Origin: an uncultured delta proteobacterium
GTDB taxonomy: Bacteria > Desulfobacterota > Binatia > UBA9968
Reading direction: 5' to 3'
Assembly (NCBI GenBank): GCA_963801935.1
Contig: CAWDHA010000014.1
Coordinates: forward strand, 6,608-70,607
DNA: 64,000 nucleotides
Made by a program: the position numbers and the translations under genes. Below the pieces are notes generated by a model. The model was not told the DNA's origin and did no database searches. It saw nothing but the letters and a program-made list of their open reading frames with translations. The first letter of the stretch is position 1. Each line of letters begins with the position of its first letter. Of the stretch, positions 20,945-64,000 are shown one piece after another.

Positions 20945-22486
20945 ATGTACGGCGATCCGCTGGCCGCCGCGGCAACCGGCCCAAGCCAGGCACGGCGGCC
21001 GCACGCGGCCGTGCTGTCAATCTTCGGCGCGTCAGGGGATCTCACCAAGCGCAAGCTCATTCCCGCGCTTTACAACCTCGCCCGGGAGAATCGTTTACCG
21101 GAAAGCTTTGCCGTGGTCGGTTACGCGCGCAGCGAAATGACCCACGAAATTTTTCGCGACAAGATGCGCGATGCGGTGCGTGAGTTTTCGCGCACTGGCT
21201 TGGACGAGTCAGTGTGGGAAAGATTCGCCTCTACGCTCTATTTTATTCCCGGCAGTTATGATGAGCCGCAGGGCTACCAGGCGATGAAGTCGTTTATCGA
21301 CGACTTTGAGCGCGGCAGCGGCGTCCTGCCGGCGCGGATCTTCTATCTGGCGATCCCGCCGGATCTTTACGCCCCCGTGGTGCGCAATATCTCTGCCACC
21401 GGCCTCGCGCCGCGCGAAAGTGACGGTGATGCCAGAACCCGGGTGGTCATTGAAAAACCGTTCGGCACCGACTTGGGCAGCGCGCGCGAGCTCAACCGCA
21501 CGGTCCATGAAGTGCTCGACGAAAAACAAGTCTATCGAATCGATCATTATCTCGGCAAAGAGACGGTGCAGAATATTATGGTTTTTCGCTTTGCCAACTC
21601 GGTCTTCGAGCCGATCTGGAACCGAAGCTATATCGATCACGTGCAGATTACCGCGGCAGAAACCGTCGGCGTGGAAAGCCGCGGCGGCTACTACGAAAAG
21701 TCGGGTGTGGTGCGCGACATGTTCCAAAATCACCTGCTGCAGTTGCTGTGCTTGACGGCGATGGAACCGCCTGTCGGTTTTTCCGCGGATTCGGTGCGCG
21801 ATGAGAAAACCAAATTGCTGAGAGCAGTTCGTCCCGTGCCCTTCGATGAAGTCGGCGCGGCGGCGATACGCGGCCACTACGCACCGGGGCAAATCGACGG
21901 CAAAGAAGTTATCGGCTACAGGGAAGAGCCGGGTGTCGCCGGAGATTCAGCGACGGCGACGTACGCGGCGATCAAATACTTCATCGATAGCTGGCGCTGG
22001 GAGGGAGTGCCGTTTTACTTGCGTTCAGGCAAGCGGCTGGCCAAGCGCGTGACCGAGATCGCCATCCAGTTCAAACGCCCGCCCATGCTGATGTTCCGGG
22101 CGTGCCCGGTGGATGAAGTCAATCCCAACGTGCTGGTGCTGCGTATCCAGCCGGATGAGGGTATCGCATTAACCTTCGAAGTGAAGCCGCCCGGCCCGGC
22201 TATCTGCGTTAGCCCTATGAGCCTTGATTTTAGATACGACGAGGCCTTCGGCAGCAGCCCGCCGGAGGCTTACGAAACTCTCCTGGAAGATTGCATCGAG
22301 GGCGATTCGACTCTGTTCACGCGCAGCGATTGGGTGGAGTTGGCATGGTCACTCGTGGATCCCATTATTGTCGAGTGGGAGAACGATAAGCCGGTCGATT
22401 TACCGACCTACCCGGCGGGAAGCTGGGGACCACAAAAAGCCGATGAGTTCATGCAGCGCGACCGGCGGCGCTGGCGCCAGCCGTAG
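20945..22486 (+). CDS. zwf: Glucose-6-phosphate 1-dehydrogenase
   Basis: IFGASGDLTKRKL and RIDHYLGKE signatures. The ATG at 20945 lies just after the gnd stop, with GGAAGGAG upstream. Confidence 0.9.
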   Translation: MYGDPLAAAATGPSQARRPHAAVLSIFGASGDLTKRKLIPALYNLARENRLPESFAVVGYARSEMTHEIFRDKMRDAVREFSRTGLDESVWERFASTLYFIPGSYDEPQGYQAMKSFIDDFERGSGVLPARIFYLAIPPDLYAPVVRNISATGLAPRESDGDARTRVVIEKPFGTDLGSARELNRTVHEVLDEKQVYRIDHYLGKETVQNIMVFRFANSVFEPIWNRSYIDHVQITAAETVGVESRGGYYEKSGVVRDMFQNHLLQLLCLTAMEPPVGFSADSVRDEKTKLLRAVRPVPFDEVGAAAIRGHYAPGQIDGKEVIGYREEPGVAGDSATATYAAIKYFIDSWRWEGVPFYLRSGKRLAKRVTEIAIQFKRPPMLMFRACPVDEVNPNVLVLRIQPDEGIALTFEVKPPGPAICVSPMSLDFRYDEAFGSSPPEAYETLLEDCIEGDSTLFTRSDWVELAWSLVDPIIVEWENDKPVDLPTYPAGSWGPQKADEFMQRDRRRWRQP

Positions 22487-22619: not shown

Positions 22620-23620
22620 ATGCAGGCTAGCAACTTGATCCTGGCGGGAGACATCGGCGGAACGAAGACCCACATCGCGCTCTTCGCGCTCAACGGCGAC
22701 AAGCTCAAAGTCGAGGTCGAGAAAACTTTTGCGAGTAAGCAGTATTCCGGACTCGAATCTGTCTTGCAGGAATTTTTGGCAGCCCGCGACTACCGAGTCG
22801 GCAGCGCTTGTTTCGGCGTGGCCGGACCGGTCGTCGATGCCTCGGTCAAAACTCCTAATCTGCCGTGGTTCATCGACGGTGGGCAACTCGCGAAAGCGCT
22901 GAACCTACCATCTGTGGCTTTGCTGAACGATCTCGAAGCCGCCGCTCTGGGCATCTTTACTCTTGAGCCTCACGAGTTTCTTCTCTCAACCCGGGCAACG
23001 CTCGGCGGCCGGCCAACAAAGCGCTGATTGCCGCCGGTACCGGTCTGGGTGAAGCTCTGCTCTACGATGATGGCCGCCAATACCATGCGAGCGCGTCGGA
23101 AGGGGGGCACGGCGACTTTGCGCCGCGCGACGATGGCGAAATCGAGTTGCTACGCTACCTGATGCGCAAGTTCGGCCACGTAAGTTACGAGCGGGTGGTT
23201 TCCGGTCCCGGCATTGCGAACATCTATGAATTTCTCTGCGCCAGCGGCCGCTATGTCGAGCCGCCGGATTTTAAAGAAAAACTCGCGGCCAGCGCCGATC
23301 CGAGCGCGTTAATTTCTCAAGCCGCATTGGCCGGAGAACTTGAGATCTGCGTTAAAGCACTCGATCTGTTTGCGTCGATCTATGGCGCGGAGGCCGGCAA
23401 CCTTGCGCTCCGCGCCAAGGCGATCGCCGGCATCTATATCGGCGGCGGCATCGCGCCAAAGATACAGAAAAAACTCAACGACGGCTCGTTCATGCGCGCG
23501 TTTGTCGAGAAGGGCCGCTACCAAGAGTTTGTCTCGGCCATCCCGGTTTATCTCGTCTTGAACGAAAAAACCGCGCTCCAGGGGGCGGCTTACCACGCCG
23601 CGTTTCGTTCCCATGGCTGA
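22620..23620 (+). pseudogene. glk: Glucokinase, frame-broken by a 1-nt indel near 22975-22990
   Basis: The N-terminal part LAGDIGGTKTH... is in frame 0 and stops at 23025-23027. Homology continues in another frame (…LNPGNARRPANKALIAAGTGLGEA… then ORF 23147..23620). Confidence 0.75.
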
Positions 23621-24359
23621 GCGCGAAATCGCCATCTACCGTGATCTTGAAGAGCTCAGCCGAGATGCGGCTGAAAAGTTTATTGGCCTGGCCGAGCGGG
23701 CGATCCGAGATTCCGGACGCTTCAGCGTGGCGCTTTCCGGCGGCTCGACGCCGCAGACTCTTTACCAGCTTTTGGCCGAGCCGGCTTATTCGGAGCGATT
23801 GCCGTGGCAGCGCGTCCATTTTTTTTGGGGTGATGAACGCGCCGTGCCGCCGGATCATCCGGAGAGCAATTATGGCATGGCGCGAGCGTTGCTGCTGTCA
23901 AAAATTCCTTGCCCGGATGAGAATATCCATCGTATGGCCGGAGAAAAAGAACCAGAGCTTGCCGCTGCCGAGTACCAGAATACTTTGCAAGTTTTTTTTG
24001 GTCTTGCACCGGGTGCATGGCCGCGCTTGGACCTGATGCTTATGGGCATCGGCGAAGATGGCCACACGGTTTCGCTCTTTCCCGATAACGATGCGCTCGA
24101 AAATCGCCAGAATTTGGTTGTGGCACCCTATGTGAAGACCTTGAACTCCTACCGCTTGACCTTGACCTTACCGCTGATCAATCACGCCGCGAATATCTGG
24201 TTTCTGGTGGCGGGGGCGAGCAAAGCGGCCGTCTTGGGCCAAATACTGAAAGCCGACGGCGCTGCCAGCAAAATCCCCGCCGCGAGAGTCGATCCAATAA
24301 GTGGACATTTGGTGTGGTTGATTACGCAGGATGCTGCCGCCGGTTCGCCGTCCCGTTAA
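23613..24359 (+). CDS. pgl: 6-phosphogluconolactonase
   Basis: VALSGGSTP and FFWGDERAVP motifs. The gene overlaps the glk end by 8 nt. Confidence 0.85.
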   Translation: MAEREIAIYRDLEELSRDAAEKFIGLAERAIRDSGRFSVALSGGSTPQTLYQLLAEPAYSERLPWQRVHFFWGDERAVPPDHPESNYGMARALLLSKIPCPDENIHRMAGEKEPELAAAEYQNTLQVFFGLAPGAWPRLDLMLMGIGEDGHTVSLFPDNDALENRQNLVVAPYVKTLNSYRLTLTLPLINHAANIWFLVAGASKAAVLGQILKADGAASKIPAARVDPISGHLVWLITQDAAAGSPSR

Positions 24360-24361
24360 GC

Positions 24362-24697
24362 TCGGTTTTTTCCATCGCGAGAGTGGAATATCGGCCCGAG
24401 ATCGCGCGCCTAGCGTGGTCGGGACGGGTTGCCGATATAATTTCGAACGGTGGCATAACCGCTGTCGGACTGCCCGTGTCCTATCCTGCGAATGTCGATA
24501 AATCGCAAACGCGTGCTCTTGCCGAAGAGTGGGAGCAAAGCGGCGTAGAAGGCGTTGTTTGTCGCAGCTCGTCGATCCTCAAAAAAGGCGTTTCGGTTTG
24601 GCGCGGCAGCCATGAAGCCTGGAGCGAGATTGCCTTTTTTGTGAGCAATACTAAGATTAAACCACGACTTCTCTCGCGTTCTAGACTGTCTATTTGA
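24362..24697 (+). pseudogene. Possible N-terminally truncated RES-domain toxin remnant
   Basis: ...SQTRALAEEWEQSGVEGVVCRSSS...IAFFV resembles the C-terminal half of RES domains. There is no N-terminal Arg motif and no antitoxin gene upstream. Confidence 0.25.
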
Positions 24698-25274
24698 GCT
24701 TCTTGAGTTCGCTCAGAATCTGCTCGTTGCTAGGCCGCTGGCGATAATCGATTTCGACGAATTTCCAGCGCACCGTGCCCTGCTTGTCAATGACATAAGT
24801 CGCCGGATGGGGCCAGCCTTTGCCGTCACGAATGAGAATCCCGTAACGATCTATGACCTTGTGGTTCTGGTCCTCTAAGAACGGGAAATTGTAGTTGCCT
24901 GGGAATCGTTCCTGGAGCTTCTCGATGAACTTTCGCGTGTCCGCCTGGGTATCGACGCTCACCGCGAGAATCTCGGTATTTTCTTTTCCGAGGAGGTTTT
25001 TCAGCTCGCCGAGCTGTTGCGCGCAGTAGGGTCACCAGTGGCCGCGGTAAAAGACCAGGACAACGCTTTTCTTGCCGCGATAGTCGGAGAGCGAAATGTT
25101 TTTCCCGTCCTGGTTCTGCAGGGTGAAATCCGGCGCTGCGTGCCCAACTCTCACGCGCGCCAGATCGGTCGGTCCAAGTTCGGCGCCGTCCTTGGGCCCC
25201 CATTGGGCGAACGCTGGTATGAGGGCGATGAAAGATAAGGAGATCAGTGAAAATATTAAAGCCAGGCGATTCAT
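24690..25274 (-). CDS. Secreted peroxiredoxin-like (AhpC/TSA, PRX-like) selenoprotein with a UxxC motif
   Basis: ORFs 25032..25274 and 24690..24962 share one frame and are joined by TGA at 25032-25034: ...KSVVLVFYRGHW-[TGA]-PYCAQQLGELK.... The signal peptide is MNRLALIFSLISLSFIALIPAFA. Confidence 0.75.
25002..25016 (-). promoter_or_regulatory. Candidate bacterial SECIS hairpin
   Basis: On the mRNA, CAGCUC-GGC-GAGCUG starts 15 nt after the UGA. Confidence 0.4.
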
Positions 25275-25334
25275 TTTTTCACCTCGACTACTTAAACGTA
25301 GAACACTGCGGCACAGTTCCCGATGCCGAGTGAG

Positions 25335-26404: not shown

Positions 26405-28069
26405 ATGACTCAAGAGTTTACGACAGAGGAAAGCGAAAGTCTCGCGCCGTTTTTCACTAATCTCGACAGAAACATCTTCGGTCTCAAACTGCCGCAGGAG
26501 GTTGCCGGCGCGCTGTTCTCGCGTTACAGCCGCTCGAGCAAGAGCCTGCGGCGCACTTTTCTCGACGAATTTCTCGGCGACCCCGAGCTCGAGCTCAAAG
26601 GTTTGATCGGGGCGCAGACTTCCGCCAGTGGCGACAGCGCGGCGCTCAAGAAAGCGCGCGCGTTCTATGACCGCGTACTGGTTGGCTACGGCGACGACTC
26701 GGTCGCGCAATTGGGCGGCGCACATATCGCCTGCGAGAACATTTCCAACGTTGCCGCGAAGCTTCTGGAAGACGCGCGCATCGGCATCGCGCCGCTGGAG
26801 AAATCGACGCGCTACGTGCGTTTCGACCAGAAAGACGCGAACGGCGATTATCTGTTTTGTCGCGAGCCGAAGATCATGGCGTCACGCCACCGCGATGAGT
26901 ATCTCCGTGTCATGAATCTGCTTTTCGACACGTATTCGCGTCAGATGGAGCCGATGCTCGAATGCATCGCCAGGTCGCTTCCCATTGAGCAAGTGGAAGT
27001 AAGAGACCCGGCGACCGGCAAGGGACTGAGCTACGATGCGGTCAAGAGCGATGACCGCCTGAGACGCTGGGCGGACACGGCTTATCGAGCGACGGTGCGG
27101 GCGCACGCCTGCGACGTGCTGCGCAGTTATCTGCCGGCCGCGACTTTGACCAACGTCGGCATCTTCGGCGTCGGCCAGGCCTTTGAGTATCTGATCAGCA
27201 AAATGTATTCGCACGAGCTGAGCGAGGCGAAGGATCTGGCAGCGGCGATGCACGGCGAGCTCAACCAGCTCATCCCGTCGTTTGTGAAGCGGGCGCAGTT
27301 CAATGAATATTTGGCTGACACATCGACGATGGCAAAACAGCTCGCGCAGAAGTGCTTGAAGGCTGGTCCCGTGAACACCACCGGACCGGTGACGTTGATC
27401 GACTATGACGAGCAAGCCGAAGAAAAAATCATCGCCGCGATTCTGTACCCGCACGCGCGCCACCCGCTAGAGCAGCTTCGCCAAGTCGCCGCCGGAATGA
27501 CCCACGTGCAGCGGCGCCAAATACTACAGGAGCACTTCGCAAAGAGGCGTAACCGCCGTGATAAACCGGGCCGGGCCTTCGAAAACGTTTATTACACATT
27601 CGATGTTCTGGGTAATCTCGGCCTCTATCGCGACCTTCACCGCCACCGAATTCTTACTCAGGAGCGCCAGGAGTTTACGACGGCCCACGGCTACGACACG
27701 CCGCCGGAAATAGAAGAGGCCGGCTTCAAGGACGAATTCGATGAATGCATGAAGCAGGCGACGGGACTCTATGAAAAGATCCACCGCGATCTTCCCATCG
27801 AATCGCAATACATTGTCCCGTTCGCCTACAAGGTCCGCTGGTACATGAAAATGAACCTGCGCGAAGCTGTGCACATGTGCGAGCTCCGCACCATGCCCCA
27901 AGGTCATCCCGATTATCGCTTCGTCTGCCAAGAGATGTGGCGCAAAATTCAGGAAGTCCACCCATCGTTAGCCGAGTGCGGCAAGTTCATTGACCGGAAG
28001 AGCTATCGTCTTGGACGACTGCAGTCCGAGATGCGCACGGAGTACAAGAAGTCCGCCTGGGAGAAATGA
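26405..28069 (+). CDS. Double-length ThyX-like (FAD-dependent thymidylate synthase family) protein
   Basis: 554 aa. The ThyX-type motif is in the C-terminal half (YRDLHRHRILTQERQ), with a degenerate counterpart in the N-terminal half (ALFSRYSRSSKSLR). Confidence 0.65.
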   Translation: MTQEFTTEESESLAPFFTNLDRNIFGLKLPQEVAGALFSRYSRSSKSLRRTFLDEFLGDPELELKGLIGAQTSASGDSAALKKARAFYDRVLVGYGDDSVAQLGGAHIACENISNVAAKLLEDARIGIAPLEKSTRYVRFDQKDANGDYLFCREPKIMASRHRDEYLRVMNLLFDTYSRQMEPMLECIARSLPIEQVEVRDPATGKGLSYDAVKSDDRLRRWADTAYRATVRAHACDVLRSYLPAATLTNVGIFGVGQAFEYLISKMYSHELSEAKDLAAAMHGELNQLIPSFVKRAQFNEYLADTSTMAKQLAQKCLKAGPVNTTGPVTLIDYDEQAEEKIIAAILYPHARHPLEQLRQVAAGMTHVQRRQILQEHFAKRRNRRDKPGRAFENVYYTFDVLGNLGLYRDLHRHRILTQERQEFTTAHGYDTPPEIEEAGFKDEFDECMKQATGLYEKIHRDLPIESQYIVPFAYKVRWYMKMNLREAVHMCELRTMPQGHPDYRFVCQEMWRKIQEVHPSLAECGKFIDRKSYRLGRLQSEMRTEYKKSAWEK

Positions 28070-33418: not shown

Positions 33419-34708
33419 ATGAGTCGAAAAATTCGCGTCGTTCACTACTTGAATCAATTCTTCGCCCAAGTCGGCGGCGAGGACAAAGGCGATGTCGGGC
33501 CAACCGTTAAAGCTGGTGTGATTGGTGCCGGCCGGGCGCTGCAGCAAGCGCTCGGCGAAGACGCCGAAGTGGTCGCGACGATTTATTGCGGCGACAACTA
33601 TTTCGCCGAGCATCAGGACCAGGTCATTTCCGAACTGCTCCAGCGAACAGCGGAATTCACGGCCGATCTACTCATCGCCGGACCGGCCTTCGAGAGCGGC
33701 CGTTACGGTGTCGCCTGCGGCGCGATTTGCCAAGCGGCGCAGCAAAAGCTCGGCATCGCCAGCGTTGCCGCCATGGATGAAGACAACGTCGGCGCCGGTT
33801 TGTATCGCAAAAATATTTACATCGTCAACTCCGGCGCGACCATCGCGCGCATGGTGCCAACTCTGCAACGCATGGCAGCTCTGGCATTGAAACTCGCGCG
33901 CCATGAAGCGGTCGGCAAACCGGCGGACGAAGGCTACCTGTCGCGCGGCATCAAGCGCAATGAATTCGCCGCCAAGCCGCCCGCCGAGCGTGCCGTCGAT
34001 ATGTTGCTCGCCAAGCTGGCCGGAAAAAAATTCGACTCCGAGATCGCCGCGCCGAAATTCACCAGCGGCAAACCGGCCGCGCCGCTTGGCGATTTGAAAT
34101 CGGCGGTGATCGCCCTGGTCACCGACGGCGGCCTGGTGCTGGAAGGGAACCCGGATAACATAGAGCCGGGACGGCCAACGCGTTTCACGACCATTCCGAT
34201 TCACAAAGTGAACACCCTTGCCGCCGACAAGTACGACGCCGTCCACTCCGGCTACGACACCGCCAGCGCCAACCTGGACCCCAATCGGCTGGTGCCCCTC
34301 GACACCATGCGCGAGCTCGCCCGCGAGGGCGTCATCGGCGCCGTCCATGAATTCATTCATTCCACCGGCGGCGCCCACGCCGCGGTGGATAACGCCGTGC
34401 AAATCGGCCGGCAAATCGCCGACCGGCTGAAAGCCGCCGGCGTCACCGGTGTGATCCTCACCTCCACTTGAGGCTCCAGCACTCGCTGCGGCGCAGCGAT
34501 CAGCAAGGAAATCGAAAAGCTGCAAATCCCGGTAACACAGATCTGCACCATGATTCCGGTGGCCAAAGAGGTCGGCTCGCTCCGCGCCATCGCCGCCGGC
34601 GGCATCGTCAGCCCAACCGGCAATCCCGAACTGTCACCGGAAAAAGAAAAACAGTTCCGGCGAGAACTGGTTTTGCGCGCATTGCAGACGCTACAGCAAG
34701 AAGTCTGA
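33419..34708 (+). CDS. GrdB-like selenoprotein (reductase protein B family) with Sec at codon 351
   Basis: MSRKIRVVHYLNQFFAQVGGEDKGD... then ...GVTGVILTST-[TGA 34469-34471]-GSSTRCGAAISKEIEKLQIPVTQICTMIPVA.... The frame stays open for 78 more codons to TGA at 34706-34708. Confidence 0.75.
34483..34499 (+). promoter_or_regulatory. Candidate bacterial SECIS hairpin
   Basis: UCGCUGC-GGC-GCAGCGA starts 11 nt after the UGA. It has the same GGC loop as the hairpin after the peroxiredoxin-like UGA. Confidence 0.4.
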
Positions 34709-63383: not shown

Positions 63384-64000
63384 TTAACGCGGTACCGATA
63401 CGCCGCTGACGCCGGCTTTCTCGATAGCGCGCGCGACGAACCCCGAAGCTTTCACATCTTCGATAAATTCACATAGATACTTCGCGGCCTCCTCGTGGCC
63501 TCTTGGAATACCGAGCGCTTGTTGTATCGCCATGAATCGGTCCTCAAAGACACGCGATCCCGGTAGCTTGGCCGCGTTGGCTACAAGGGTTTGTCGCACG
63601 CCGCCAAGCACATCGACCTTGCCGGAAACGATCAGCTCGAAGGCGGCGTCCGGGCTTGATGCCCGCAATAGTTGGGCGTGTTGAAGGCTGCGGCTCAGAA
63701 ACAAATCGTACGCGCTGCCGGCCGACGCGCCGACGCGCATTCCCTCGCGATCGACCTCCGCGACCGTGCAGAGCGGCGACCCCGCAGGCACAAGATAGGT
63801 CCCTTCGATTTCAACGTAGGGCGCGGTGAAATCGATCTCGTCAGCGCGCAAGGGGTCAATGGCGAGAAACGCGACATCCCACGCTGCTGCTTTGAGCGCG
63901 CTGAACATCTTCCCCGCTGACTCGAAGCCGACCAGTTCGACCGGCACGCCAACACGTTGGCCGATCTCCCGCCCCAGATCAGGCGCCACGCCATGTAGCT
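63384..64000 (-). CDS. Family-3 (polar amino acid type) solute-binding protein, 5' end beyond the window
   Basis: ...WDVAFLAIDPLRADEIDFTAPYVEIEGTYLVP...; the ORF is open to the window edge. Confidence 0.6.
   Translation of the reverse strand, partial: LHGVAPDLGREIGQRVGVPVELVGFESAGKMFSALKAAAWDVAFLAIDPLRADEIDFTAPYVEIEGTYLVPAGSPLCTVAEVDREGMRVGASAGSAYDLFLSRSLQHAQLLRASSPDAAFELIVSGKVDVLGGVRQTLVANAAKLPGSRVFEDRFMAIQQALGIPRGHEEAAKYLCEFIEDVKASGFVARAIEKAGVSGVSVPR

Follow-up and report, generated by a model that had tools for sequence, protein, structure and literature searches.

The locus and its in-frame TGA

We analyzed a 64,000-nt stretch (the window) of contig CAWDHA010000014.1, from the genome assembly of an uncultured delta proteobacterium of the Binatia (GCA_963801935.1). 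Here we describe a minus-strand gene in this window that very probably encodes a genuine, exported AhpC/TSA-fold (PRX-like2 type) selenoprotein with the active-site motif U81-P-Y-C84, where U is selenocysteine (Sec). The open reading frame (ORF) listing contains two minus-strand ORFs here, 25274..25032 and 24962..24690. A first-pass annotation of the DNA had placed them in a single frame parted only by a TGA codon, and our translation with TGA read as U confirms this: the sole in-frame interruption is the TGA at 25032-25034, and the frame is otherwise open over 194 codons. The read-through product runs ...VVLVFYRGHW-U-PYCAQQLGELKNLL..., so that the interruption lies within a W-[TGA]-P-Y-C motif.

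We queried 60 related genomes in all six frames with the read-through protein and obtained 38 homologous matches, spread over 24 of the 27 genera. Exactly one in-frame TGA occurs in 37 of them; the remaining match is a fragment lying downstream of the site. The TGA column is identical in 20 fetched loci, which read W-[TGA]-P-(Y/F/D)-C. Two further collection scans enlarged the ortholog set to 154 distinct DNA sequences, from several phyla and with 45-75% protein identity, and all 154 have TGA at the same codon within a U-x-x-C pattern. The carriers are mostly metagenome-assembled genomes (MAGs) labeled ‘Candidatus Binatia’ or ‘Deltaproteobacteria’, joined by Acidobacteriota/Blastocatellia, Methylomirabilota and Rokubacteria-type MAGs. 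Close homologs are thus neither split nor terminated at this point; the TGA and the coding sequence downstream of it are kept in all of them.

More distant homologs carry cysteine at the site. Seven such DNA loci have TGC or TGT at the Sec codon, and among the 120 best relatives in a database protein comparison, 71 proteins of about 55% identity or less (from Gemmatimonadota and others) have Cys there. These Cys homologs read WCPYC or WCPFC, with C in the U column. A further 21 of the 120 show ‘W’ at the site; the one such record that we checked (P0003) is reproduced only when TGA is translated as W, and the ‘W’ forms are an artefact of code-4 gene calling on short contigs. Approximately 26 of the 120 are C-terminal fragments of 106-114 residues, the expected debris of gene calling across a Sec codon. 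The ~110-residue fragments and ‘W’ read-throughs fall under P0002-P0023, P0077 and P0080-P0121, and the fragments are named ‘peroxiredoxin’ in public protein collections.

Coding constraint is visible on both sides of the TGA. Among the orthologs, entropy at third versus second codon positions is 1.23 versus 0.05 upstream and 1.64 versus 0.86 downstream (codons +11 to +23), and coding periodicity extends through the 23 codons that separate the TGA from the first possible restart codon. TGA is also the commonest ordinary stop codon in the organism’s own genome, ending 600 of the 1383 long ORFs there, so it has not been reassigned. Together, the conserved TGA, the periodicity on either side of it and the ordinary use of TGA as a stop exclude, for practical purposes, a pseudogene, a sequencing error, a recoded stop or two separate genes. 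The comparative data strongly support decoding of the in-frame UGA as selenocysteine.

Exactly 15 nt past the TGA begins a hairpin, CAGCUC-GGC-GAGCUG, at the position given in the first-pass annotation; it proves to be conserved and under selection at the RNA level. Its 5-bp core, CAGCU/AGCUG, is intact in 150 of 154 Sec forms and in one of seven Cys forms (Fisher p = 6.5e-8), the latter a small control (n = 7), as a scan seeded with Cys forms alone returned mostly Sec forms. Synonymous sites in the stem codons are frozen, with p-values from 1e-22 to 1e-40. Lysine is encoded by AAG versus AAA in a ratio of 78:0 at codon +9 against 13:98 at +11 (p = 8e-40), glutamate by GAG versus GAA at 69:0 at +9 against 10:40 at +5, and glutamine by CAG versus CAA at 153:0 at +6 against 6:24 at +5. 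Leucine is CTG in 150 of 153 sequences at +10, and all six leucine codons occur at +13 and +14. Third-position entropy is correspondingly 0, 0 and 0.16 at +6, +9 and +10, versus 1.79 at the loop codon, +8. The identical QLGEL peptide is written as CAG-CTG-GGG-GAA-CTC in one of the Cys forms (L114), which lacks the hairpin.

Beyond the core, the sixth base pair occurs in three Watson-Crick forms (C-G in 65 sequences, U-A in 18, G-C in 5), with coordinated changes between the Leu codon and the Glu/Lys/Gln codon. In 56 sequences this position is a C·A mismatch, which gives a 5-bp stem with a pentaloop. A covariation count over 82 sequences found 25 double changes versus 9.9 ± 2.1, above all 500 shuffles; this signal emerged only after we had entered the sixth and outer pairs manually. 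The central triplet of the hairpin is always G-G/U-N. Bacterial Sec insertion sequence (bSECIS) elements have a loop 16-37 nt from the UGA, a G among the first two loop bases and a stem of at least 4 bp; the hairpin conforms to this description, only marginally so on energy (-7.8 kcal/mol, centroid structure). The data strongly support this element, whose stem of 5-6 bp and G-rich tri- to pentaloop are set within the Q-L-G-E/K-L codons, as the signal for Sec insertion.

The hairpin resembles the elements that follow two other Sec codons, a likeness that is strongly supported. A GrdB-like gene in the window, with a Sec codon at 34469 (plus strand; ...LTST-U-GSSTRC...), carries UCGCUGC-GGC-GCAGCGA 11 nt on, whose 7-bp stem closes on an identical GGC triloop (34469-34499, plus strand). 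In same-genus and same-family relatives, the SelD gene carries UCGUGCAA-GUU-UUGCACGG, an 8-bp stem 25 nt past its UGA. SelD of these relatives is itself a selenoprotein, reading ...KAAG-U-AAKLGP... (L205-L209; G001, G002, G003, G005, G007).

Table 1. Features of the selenoprotein locus, in window coordinates.
Feature	Coordinates	Strand	Remarks
Selenoprotein precursor coding sequence	24690..25274	-	ATG 25274-25272; 194 codons plus TAG 24690-24692
Shine-Dalgarno-like GAGGTG	25280..25285	-	5 nt ahead of ATG
Predicted signal peptide, residues 1-23 (MNR / LALIFSLISLSFIALIP / AFA)	25206..25274	-	Signal peptidase I cleavage predicted after A-F-A
UGA read as U81, which opens the UxxC redox motif	25032..25034	-	Supported by comparative data
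Cys84 (TGC), putative resolving partner of U81	25023..25025	-	Invariant in homolog alignment; equivalent of the peroxidatic Cys of peroxiredoxins
SECIS-like hairpin CAGCUC-GGC-GAGCUG	25002..25016	-	6-bp stem, GGC triloop; encodes Q87-L-G-E-L91
Short-chain dehydrogenase/reductase (SDR) gene, 268 residues	25335..26141	-	Upstream; Pfam adh_short, 1.7e-65

Fold, active site and predicted export

The read-through protein matches the Pfam family AhpC-TSA (PF00578) over residues 43-170 and nearly the full profile (positions 1-123 of 124; E = 9.8e-37, 126 bits, cutoff 26), and Pfam Redoxin with 93 bits. Against every NCBIfam model the protein stays below cutoff. The extracytoplasmic thioredoxin-like models ResA (NF002854), DsbE (TIGR00385) and TlpA (NF047696) score 68, 33 and 40 against cutoffs of 170, 123 and 230, and the BCP model scores 64 against 140. 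The selenoprotein models fare no better: the SelL-related NF040769 scores 50 against 120 in a partial match to residues 46-123, PrxU (NF040737) 47 against 270, and two models of thioredoxin-fold selenoproteins, NF041054 and NF053656, 39 against 300 and 21 against 100. An AlphaFold2 model has an overall pLDDT (predicted local distance difference test) of 84.6 and a pTM (predicted template-modeling score) of 0.80, with pLDDT of ~90 over residues 40-194 and a disordered N-terminal segment of 30 residues. Foldseek ranks Bcp4, AhpE, Tpx and PrxQ at the top for this model. Template-modeling scores normalised by target length span 0.83-0.88 and reach 0.86-0.88 for BCP/AhpE, placing the predicted fold nearer to peroxiredoxins (Prx) than to TlpA/ResA.

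We next compared the active site with those of structurally characterized homologs. FYRGHW-U-PY-C aligns over FFPAAF-S-PV-C of Aeropyrum pernix BCP (2cx3), such that C84 aligns with the peroxidatic Cys of this protein and of Sulfolobus tokodaii 2ywn, and U81 aligns both with the Thr/Ser of peroxiredoxins and with the more N-terminal Cys in proteins of CxxC type. WUPYC likewise aligns directly with WCPYC of a TlpA-like Geobacter protein (3hdc). Of the Prx motif PxxxT/SxxC only the Cys is kept; the Pro is replaced by R77, which is invariant, and the Thr/Ser by U81. The Prx catalytic Arg (KRAVFIV in 2cx3) is replaced by P157 (HPATYVI), also invariant in the homolog alignment. Judged from these alignments and the structure model, the protein combines a Prx scaffold with a thioredoxin-style UxxC motif, and a true peroxiredoxin is the less likely description. 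The name ‘peroxiredoxin-like’ in the first-pass annotation thus holds for the Prx-type fold and AhpC/TSA domain, but the missing canonical Prx residues point instead to a PRX-like2/CxxC-type oxidoreductase. That annotation also placed the stop at a peroxidatic or redox Cys; the second half of this statement stands, as U81 matches the N-terminal Cys of CxxC proteins, but the peroxidatic position is that of C84.

A different reading accepts the selenoprotein but sees in it a true Sec peroxiredoxin, in which U81 is peroxidatic and reduces periplasmic H2O2 or organic hydroperoxides while C84 resolves. Selenocysteine is an excellent peroxide nucleophile, as in GPx. Such chemistry would suit a protein that in fold comes nearest to BCP/PrxQ, AhpE and Tpx and whose best sequence matches in the Protein Data Bank are BCP-type thiol peroxidases, and TxxU Prx selenoproteins are among the listed families (PMC13188914). 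Known Sec peroxiredoxins, however, are of this TxxU type, with Sec at the peroxidatic position (PMC2398784, Table 2), which here is held by Cys. Moreover, PxxxT/SxxC and the catalytic Arg are lost to R77, U81 and P157, and the PrxU and BCP models both score far below their cutoffs. Overall, we consider a true Sec peroxiredoxin possible but unlikely.

For the UxxC oxidoreductase that we favor, alignment with CxxC proteins and peroxiredoxins suggests that the U81 selenolate would act as the attacking nucleophile and that C84 would resolve the intermediate to a selenenylsulfide, which would then be re-reduced. Because the Pro, Thr and Arg of peroxiredoxins are missing, thiol/disulfide (or sulfenate) exchange is more likely than classical Prx peroxidation, and the sequence accordingly suggests an exported selenolate-based redox protein that probably acts as a thiol/disulfide oxidoreductase and less probably as a classical peroxidase. 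Reduction of peroxides by U81 is conceivable all the same.

The N-terminus, MNRLALIFSLISLSFIALIPAFA|QWGPKDG, shows the n/h/c layout of a Sec-pathway signal peptide, with a basic n-region, a hydrophobic core of 17-19 residues and A-F-A ahead of QWGPKDG. The clean signal peptide noted at first pass is therefore upheld as a prediction, and it extends across the family. A strongly hydrophobic stretch of 12 residues is present in 97% of the 98 orthologs whose N-termini are complete, and the commonest -3/-1 patterns, AxA (34) and VxA (12), lie directly before a conserved Q-L-G-P-x-D. One Cys homolog (P0110) bears a lipobox (LLAGC) instead. From these conserved features we predict a cleavable signal peptide of the Sec type on the precursor; the mature domain of ~170 residues would accordingly work outside the cytoplasm.

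Exported selenoproteins include Tat-exported formate dehydrogenases and [NiFeSe] hydrogenases. Among selenoproteins with signal sequences there are also precedents in SaoB and SaoC (bioRxiv 10.1101/2022.07.06.499078), so that a periplasmic selenoprotein is, as the first-pass annotation remarked, less common, though not new. In the literature on related selenoprotein families, the texts of PMC2398784 and PMC13188914 contain neither ‘signal peptide’ nor ‘periplasm’, and that of PMC1794560 neither ‘signal’ nor ‘periplasm’.

Selenocysteine decoding in the lineage

We next asked what the organism and its relatives reveal about Sec decoding. The machinery is widespread among the relatives: SelA scores above cutoff in 57 of 60 genomes, including 4 of 4 from the same genus, SelB in 54 of 60, and SelD, itself with one in-frame TGA, in 18 of 20, while tRNA-Sec is found in 13 of 20. 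The three genes selA, selB and selD are contiguous in relatives (for example, G003:C184 11381-15779), so a single missed locus removes all three.

The organism’s own genome also contains a further gene with a conserved in-frame TGA, an AhpC/TSA UxxC paralog on another contig (C37 of G000, Sec codon at C37:64103). The first-pass annotation had held that the exported selenoprotein gene and the GrdB-like gene together show an organism that decodes UGA as Sec; we agree, and the paralog adds a third case. The paralog (C37:63968-64453) reads FYRG-x-W-[TGA]-PYC-x-RQLAD(F/Y)Q. It is without an evident signal peptide, as are those at L016-L018, L052, L058, L073 and L116, and in several relatives it stands in tandem with the exported gene. 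Its N-terminus looks frameshifted, with an ATG giving MARQLLPGDSFP in another frame and a TGA at 63995.

Several observations weigh against our interpretation. In the organism’s own assembly (3.9 Mb in 37 contigs, 60.8% complete, 21 tRNA genes), none of SelA, SelB and SelD scores above cutoff, and no tRNA with a UCA anticodon (tRNA-Sec) was found. A search for selABCD, proposed at first pass as a check on the genome, thus came back empty for this partial assembly and positive for nearly all relatives. The best match of the SelB model in the assembly has 96 bits, and every relative has an EF-Tu-level match at ~190 bits. Given the incompleteness of the assembly, its 21 tRNAs and this missing EF-Tu-level match, the absence of Sec machinery is uninformative.

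Other points concern the hairpin and the gene neighborhood. Single-sequence folding predicts the short hairpin, but at an energy that shuffled sequence equals (z = 0.75 for a 66-nt stretch). We therefore rejected energy alone as evidence, and the weight of the hairpin comes from the comparative data. Within those data, the five core pairs never vary, so that covariation supports only the sixth pair and one outer pair, and RNAalifold recovered the invariant 5-bp core alone, with zero covariation. The sequence AGCU is self-complementary, which makes part of the pairing a by-product of the Q-L-x-E-L peptide, and one of the seven Cys forms has the core. Finally, DsbD, a neighbor of Cys homologs (see below), adjoins none of 152 Sec-form loci.

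Two further readings of the UGA fit the data far less well than selenocysteine, and we regard each as very improbable. The first has one of the standard amino acids (Trp, Cys or Arg) inserted at the UGA, through near-cognate suppression or a reassigned code. This would explain why gene callers gave many orthologs TGA = W, and would sit easily with the Sec machinery unseen in the organism’s own assembly; but the W calls come from short code-4 contigs in the face of the 600 long ORFs that TGA closes, the site aligns with a redox-active Cys as a classic Sec/Cys pair, a conserved SelB-type hairpin follows it, and the Sec machinery of relatives is complete. The second, with a similarly slight chance, is that the locus makes two products, a secreted peptide of 80 residues ending at the TGA and a separate 90-residue protein starting at GTG 24962. 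ORF calling with translation table 11 yields exactly these two ORFs, and the database holds many C-terminal entries of 106-114 residues. These entries, however, are the expected gene-calling artefact of a Sec codon, the 23 codons between TGA and GTG are under coding constraint and include the invariant C84, and neither half is a complete thioredoxin fold, the AlphaFold2 model requiring both. Least probable of all is a dead gene in which a TGY Cys codon was mutated or miscalled to TGA: TGC and TGT are one base from TGA, the assembly has at least two likely frameshifts elsewhere (the glucokinase at 22620-23620 and the N-terminus of the C37 paralog) and no Sec machinery was found in it, but the comparative data effectively refute this reading, with TGA in all 154 orthologs across several phyla, coding constraint on both halves and a hairpin kept by selection on synonymous sites.

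Gene neighborhood and relation to known families

Immediately upstream of the selenoprotein gene, the SDR gene, of cytoplasmic type, ends 60 nt ahead of the start codon. We found no promoter-like site on the minus strand between the two genes, which is compatible with co-transcription; the two are probably co-transcribed. An SDR homolog flanks 53 of 152 Sec-form loci as well as L201, a locus with a serine codon. This Ser variant (L201:1501-2019, Logan SRR30681621; P0017, 61% identical) has TCA at the Sec codon and keeps the CAGCUCGGGAAGCUG hairpin along with the upstream SDR gene. Its Ser codon reflects a recent change from Sec to Ser or else an error in the reads or the assembly.

From the other side, a zwf-glk-pgl block converges on the selenoprotein gene, with zwf at ~20987-22483 and pgl at 23613-24359. 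Its glucokinase is split between plus-strand ORFs at 22620-23027 and 23147-23620 (Pfam Glucokinase at 1-115 and 172-311), either as a pseudogene or through an assembly indel error. A convergent plus-strand ORF of 127 residues (24314-24697) overlaps the selenoprotein gene by 8 nt. It has no Pfam match, is present only at its own locus among the 152 and bears no relation to the 127-residue ORF of L201; it is probably no gene. Beyond the SDR gene lies a ThyX-like plus-strand ORF (26405-28069) that, at 554 residues, is much longer than the usual ThyX, with Thy1 covering only residues 330-521 in two stretches and no assignment for the 330 residues at its N-terminus.

The surroundings of the Cys homologs offer a clue to the reductant. 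Cys homologs of the Gemmatimonadota type lie divergently adjacent to full-length DsbD, often along with a DsbA-like gene and DUF3179 (L114, L115, L117, L119 and others). As a conserved partner, DsbD fails for the Sec forms, where it is adjacent to no locus, and we treat it as an indirect lead only. DUF3179 flanks 13 of 152 Sec-form loci, a CcdA-type DsbD_TM protein is present in 11 of 12 relatives, and cytochrome-maturation genes were not found adjacent. On the basis of the DsbD neighbors of the Cys homologs and the CcdA-type protein of the relatives, we speculate that a membrane DsbD/CcdA-type pathway could serve as reductant.

Reviews of the selenoproteome define families by domain and Sec motif (PMC9312934). 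A Prx-like thiol:disulfide oxidoreductase class (pfam00578, UxxC/UxxU) was first predicted by Kryukov & Gladyshev in 2004, in Deltaproteobacteria including Geobacter, and has been predicted in Geobacter, Syntrophus, Desulfotalea and others, with its function likewise only predicted (PMC9312934, PMC13188914, PMC1794560). The selenoproteome of the Global Ocean Sampling (GOS) project includes 225 sequences of the corresponding ‘Prx-like 1’ family (pfam00578, UxxC; PMC2398784). Our protein shares with this class, exemplified by Geobacter sulfurreducens WP_010940744.1, the PF00578 domain, a UxxC motif with Sec in first position and common Cys homologs, and it is a member under the domain-plus-motif definition. 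It departs from the class as published in having a conserved signal peptide, in a subfamily mostly of soil Binatia and Acidobacteriota, and in reaching no NCBIfam cutoff.

Four other groups bear comparison. PRX-like2 proteins (CDD cd02970) have an AhpC/TSA fold and a CxxC motif whose second Cys is equivalent to the peroxidatic one, with the other Prx catalytic residues missing. As far as descriptions can be compared, our protein is alike in having C84 at the peroxidatic Cys of a Prx-like scaffold and in lacking the Pro, Thr and Arg. The listed selenoprotein form of cd02970, in contrast, is UxxS (PMC13188914), and ours is UxxC. With TlpA, ResA, DsbE (CcmG) and the ‘thiol:disulfide interchange protein’ UxxC family (PF13098), our protein shares a predicted extracytoplasmic signal and W-C/U-x-x-C; the TlpA/ResA/DsbE group depends on DsbD/CcdA, and the Cys homologs of our protein adjoin DsbD. 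Unlike that group, it scores far below the corresponding model cutoffs and has a predicted fold nearer to peroxiredoxins. SelL, described as a Prx-like protein (PMC2398784), is similar in its AhpC/TSA-like fold and Sec-containing redox motif of the xxU/UxxC type, but SelL is UxxU, and at 50 bits versus 120 our protein is not a member of NF040769. Finally, PrxU and other TxxU peroxiredoxins share the fold, the superfamily and a Sec residue in the active-site loop, but in our protein Sec lies three residues earlier and the peroxidatic position stays Cys.

Overall, this is a genuine conserved selenoprotein. It belongs to a class predicted since 2004, within which it stands for no more than an unnamed soil subfamily that bears signal peptides. 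Going further, one might see a distinct, unnamed clade of Sec-translocon-exported UxxC proteins, widespread in soil bacteria (Binatia, Acidobacteriota/Blastocatellia, Methylomirabilota-like). In such a clade the Sec form would be the norm, a tiny SECIS (5-bp core, G-K-N triloop) would lie where the active-site helix makes its first turn, and the proteins would serve a selenium-dependent periplasmic redox defence with a reductant unlike that of the DsbD-linked Cys homologs. We put this forward tentatively, and regard it as rather improbable in full.

The family is systematically mis-annotated through ‘W’ reads and C-terminal fragments, and without an NCBIfam model, pipelines will keep splitting its genes. 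The hairpin is a clean example of a minimal in-frame SECIS, and the freezing of synonymous sites that marks it could help to train selenoprotein finders for soil metagenomes. Biologically, the protein adds one more redox selenoprotein with predicted export. Together with the GrdB-type gene and the UxxC paralog, it shows that selenocysteine is in use in this uncultured Binatia lineage, despite a partial assembly that is without the Sec machinery.

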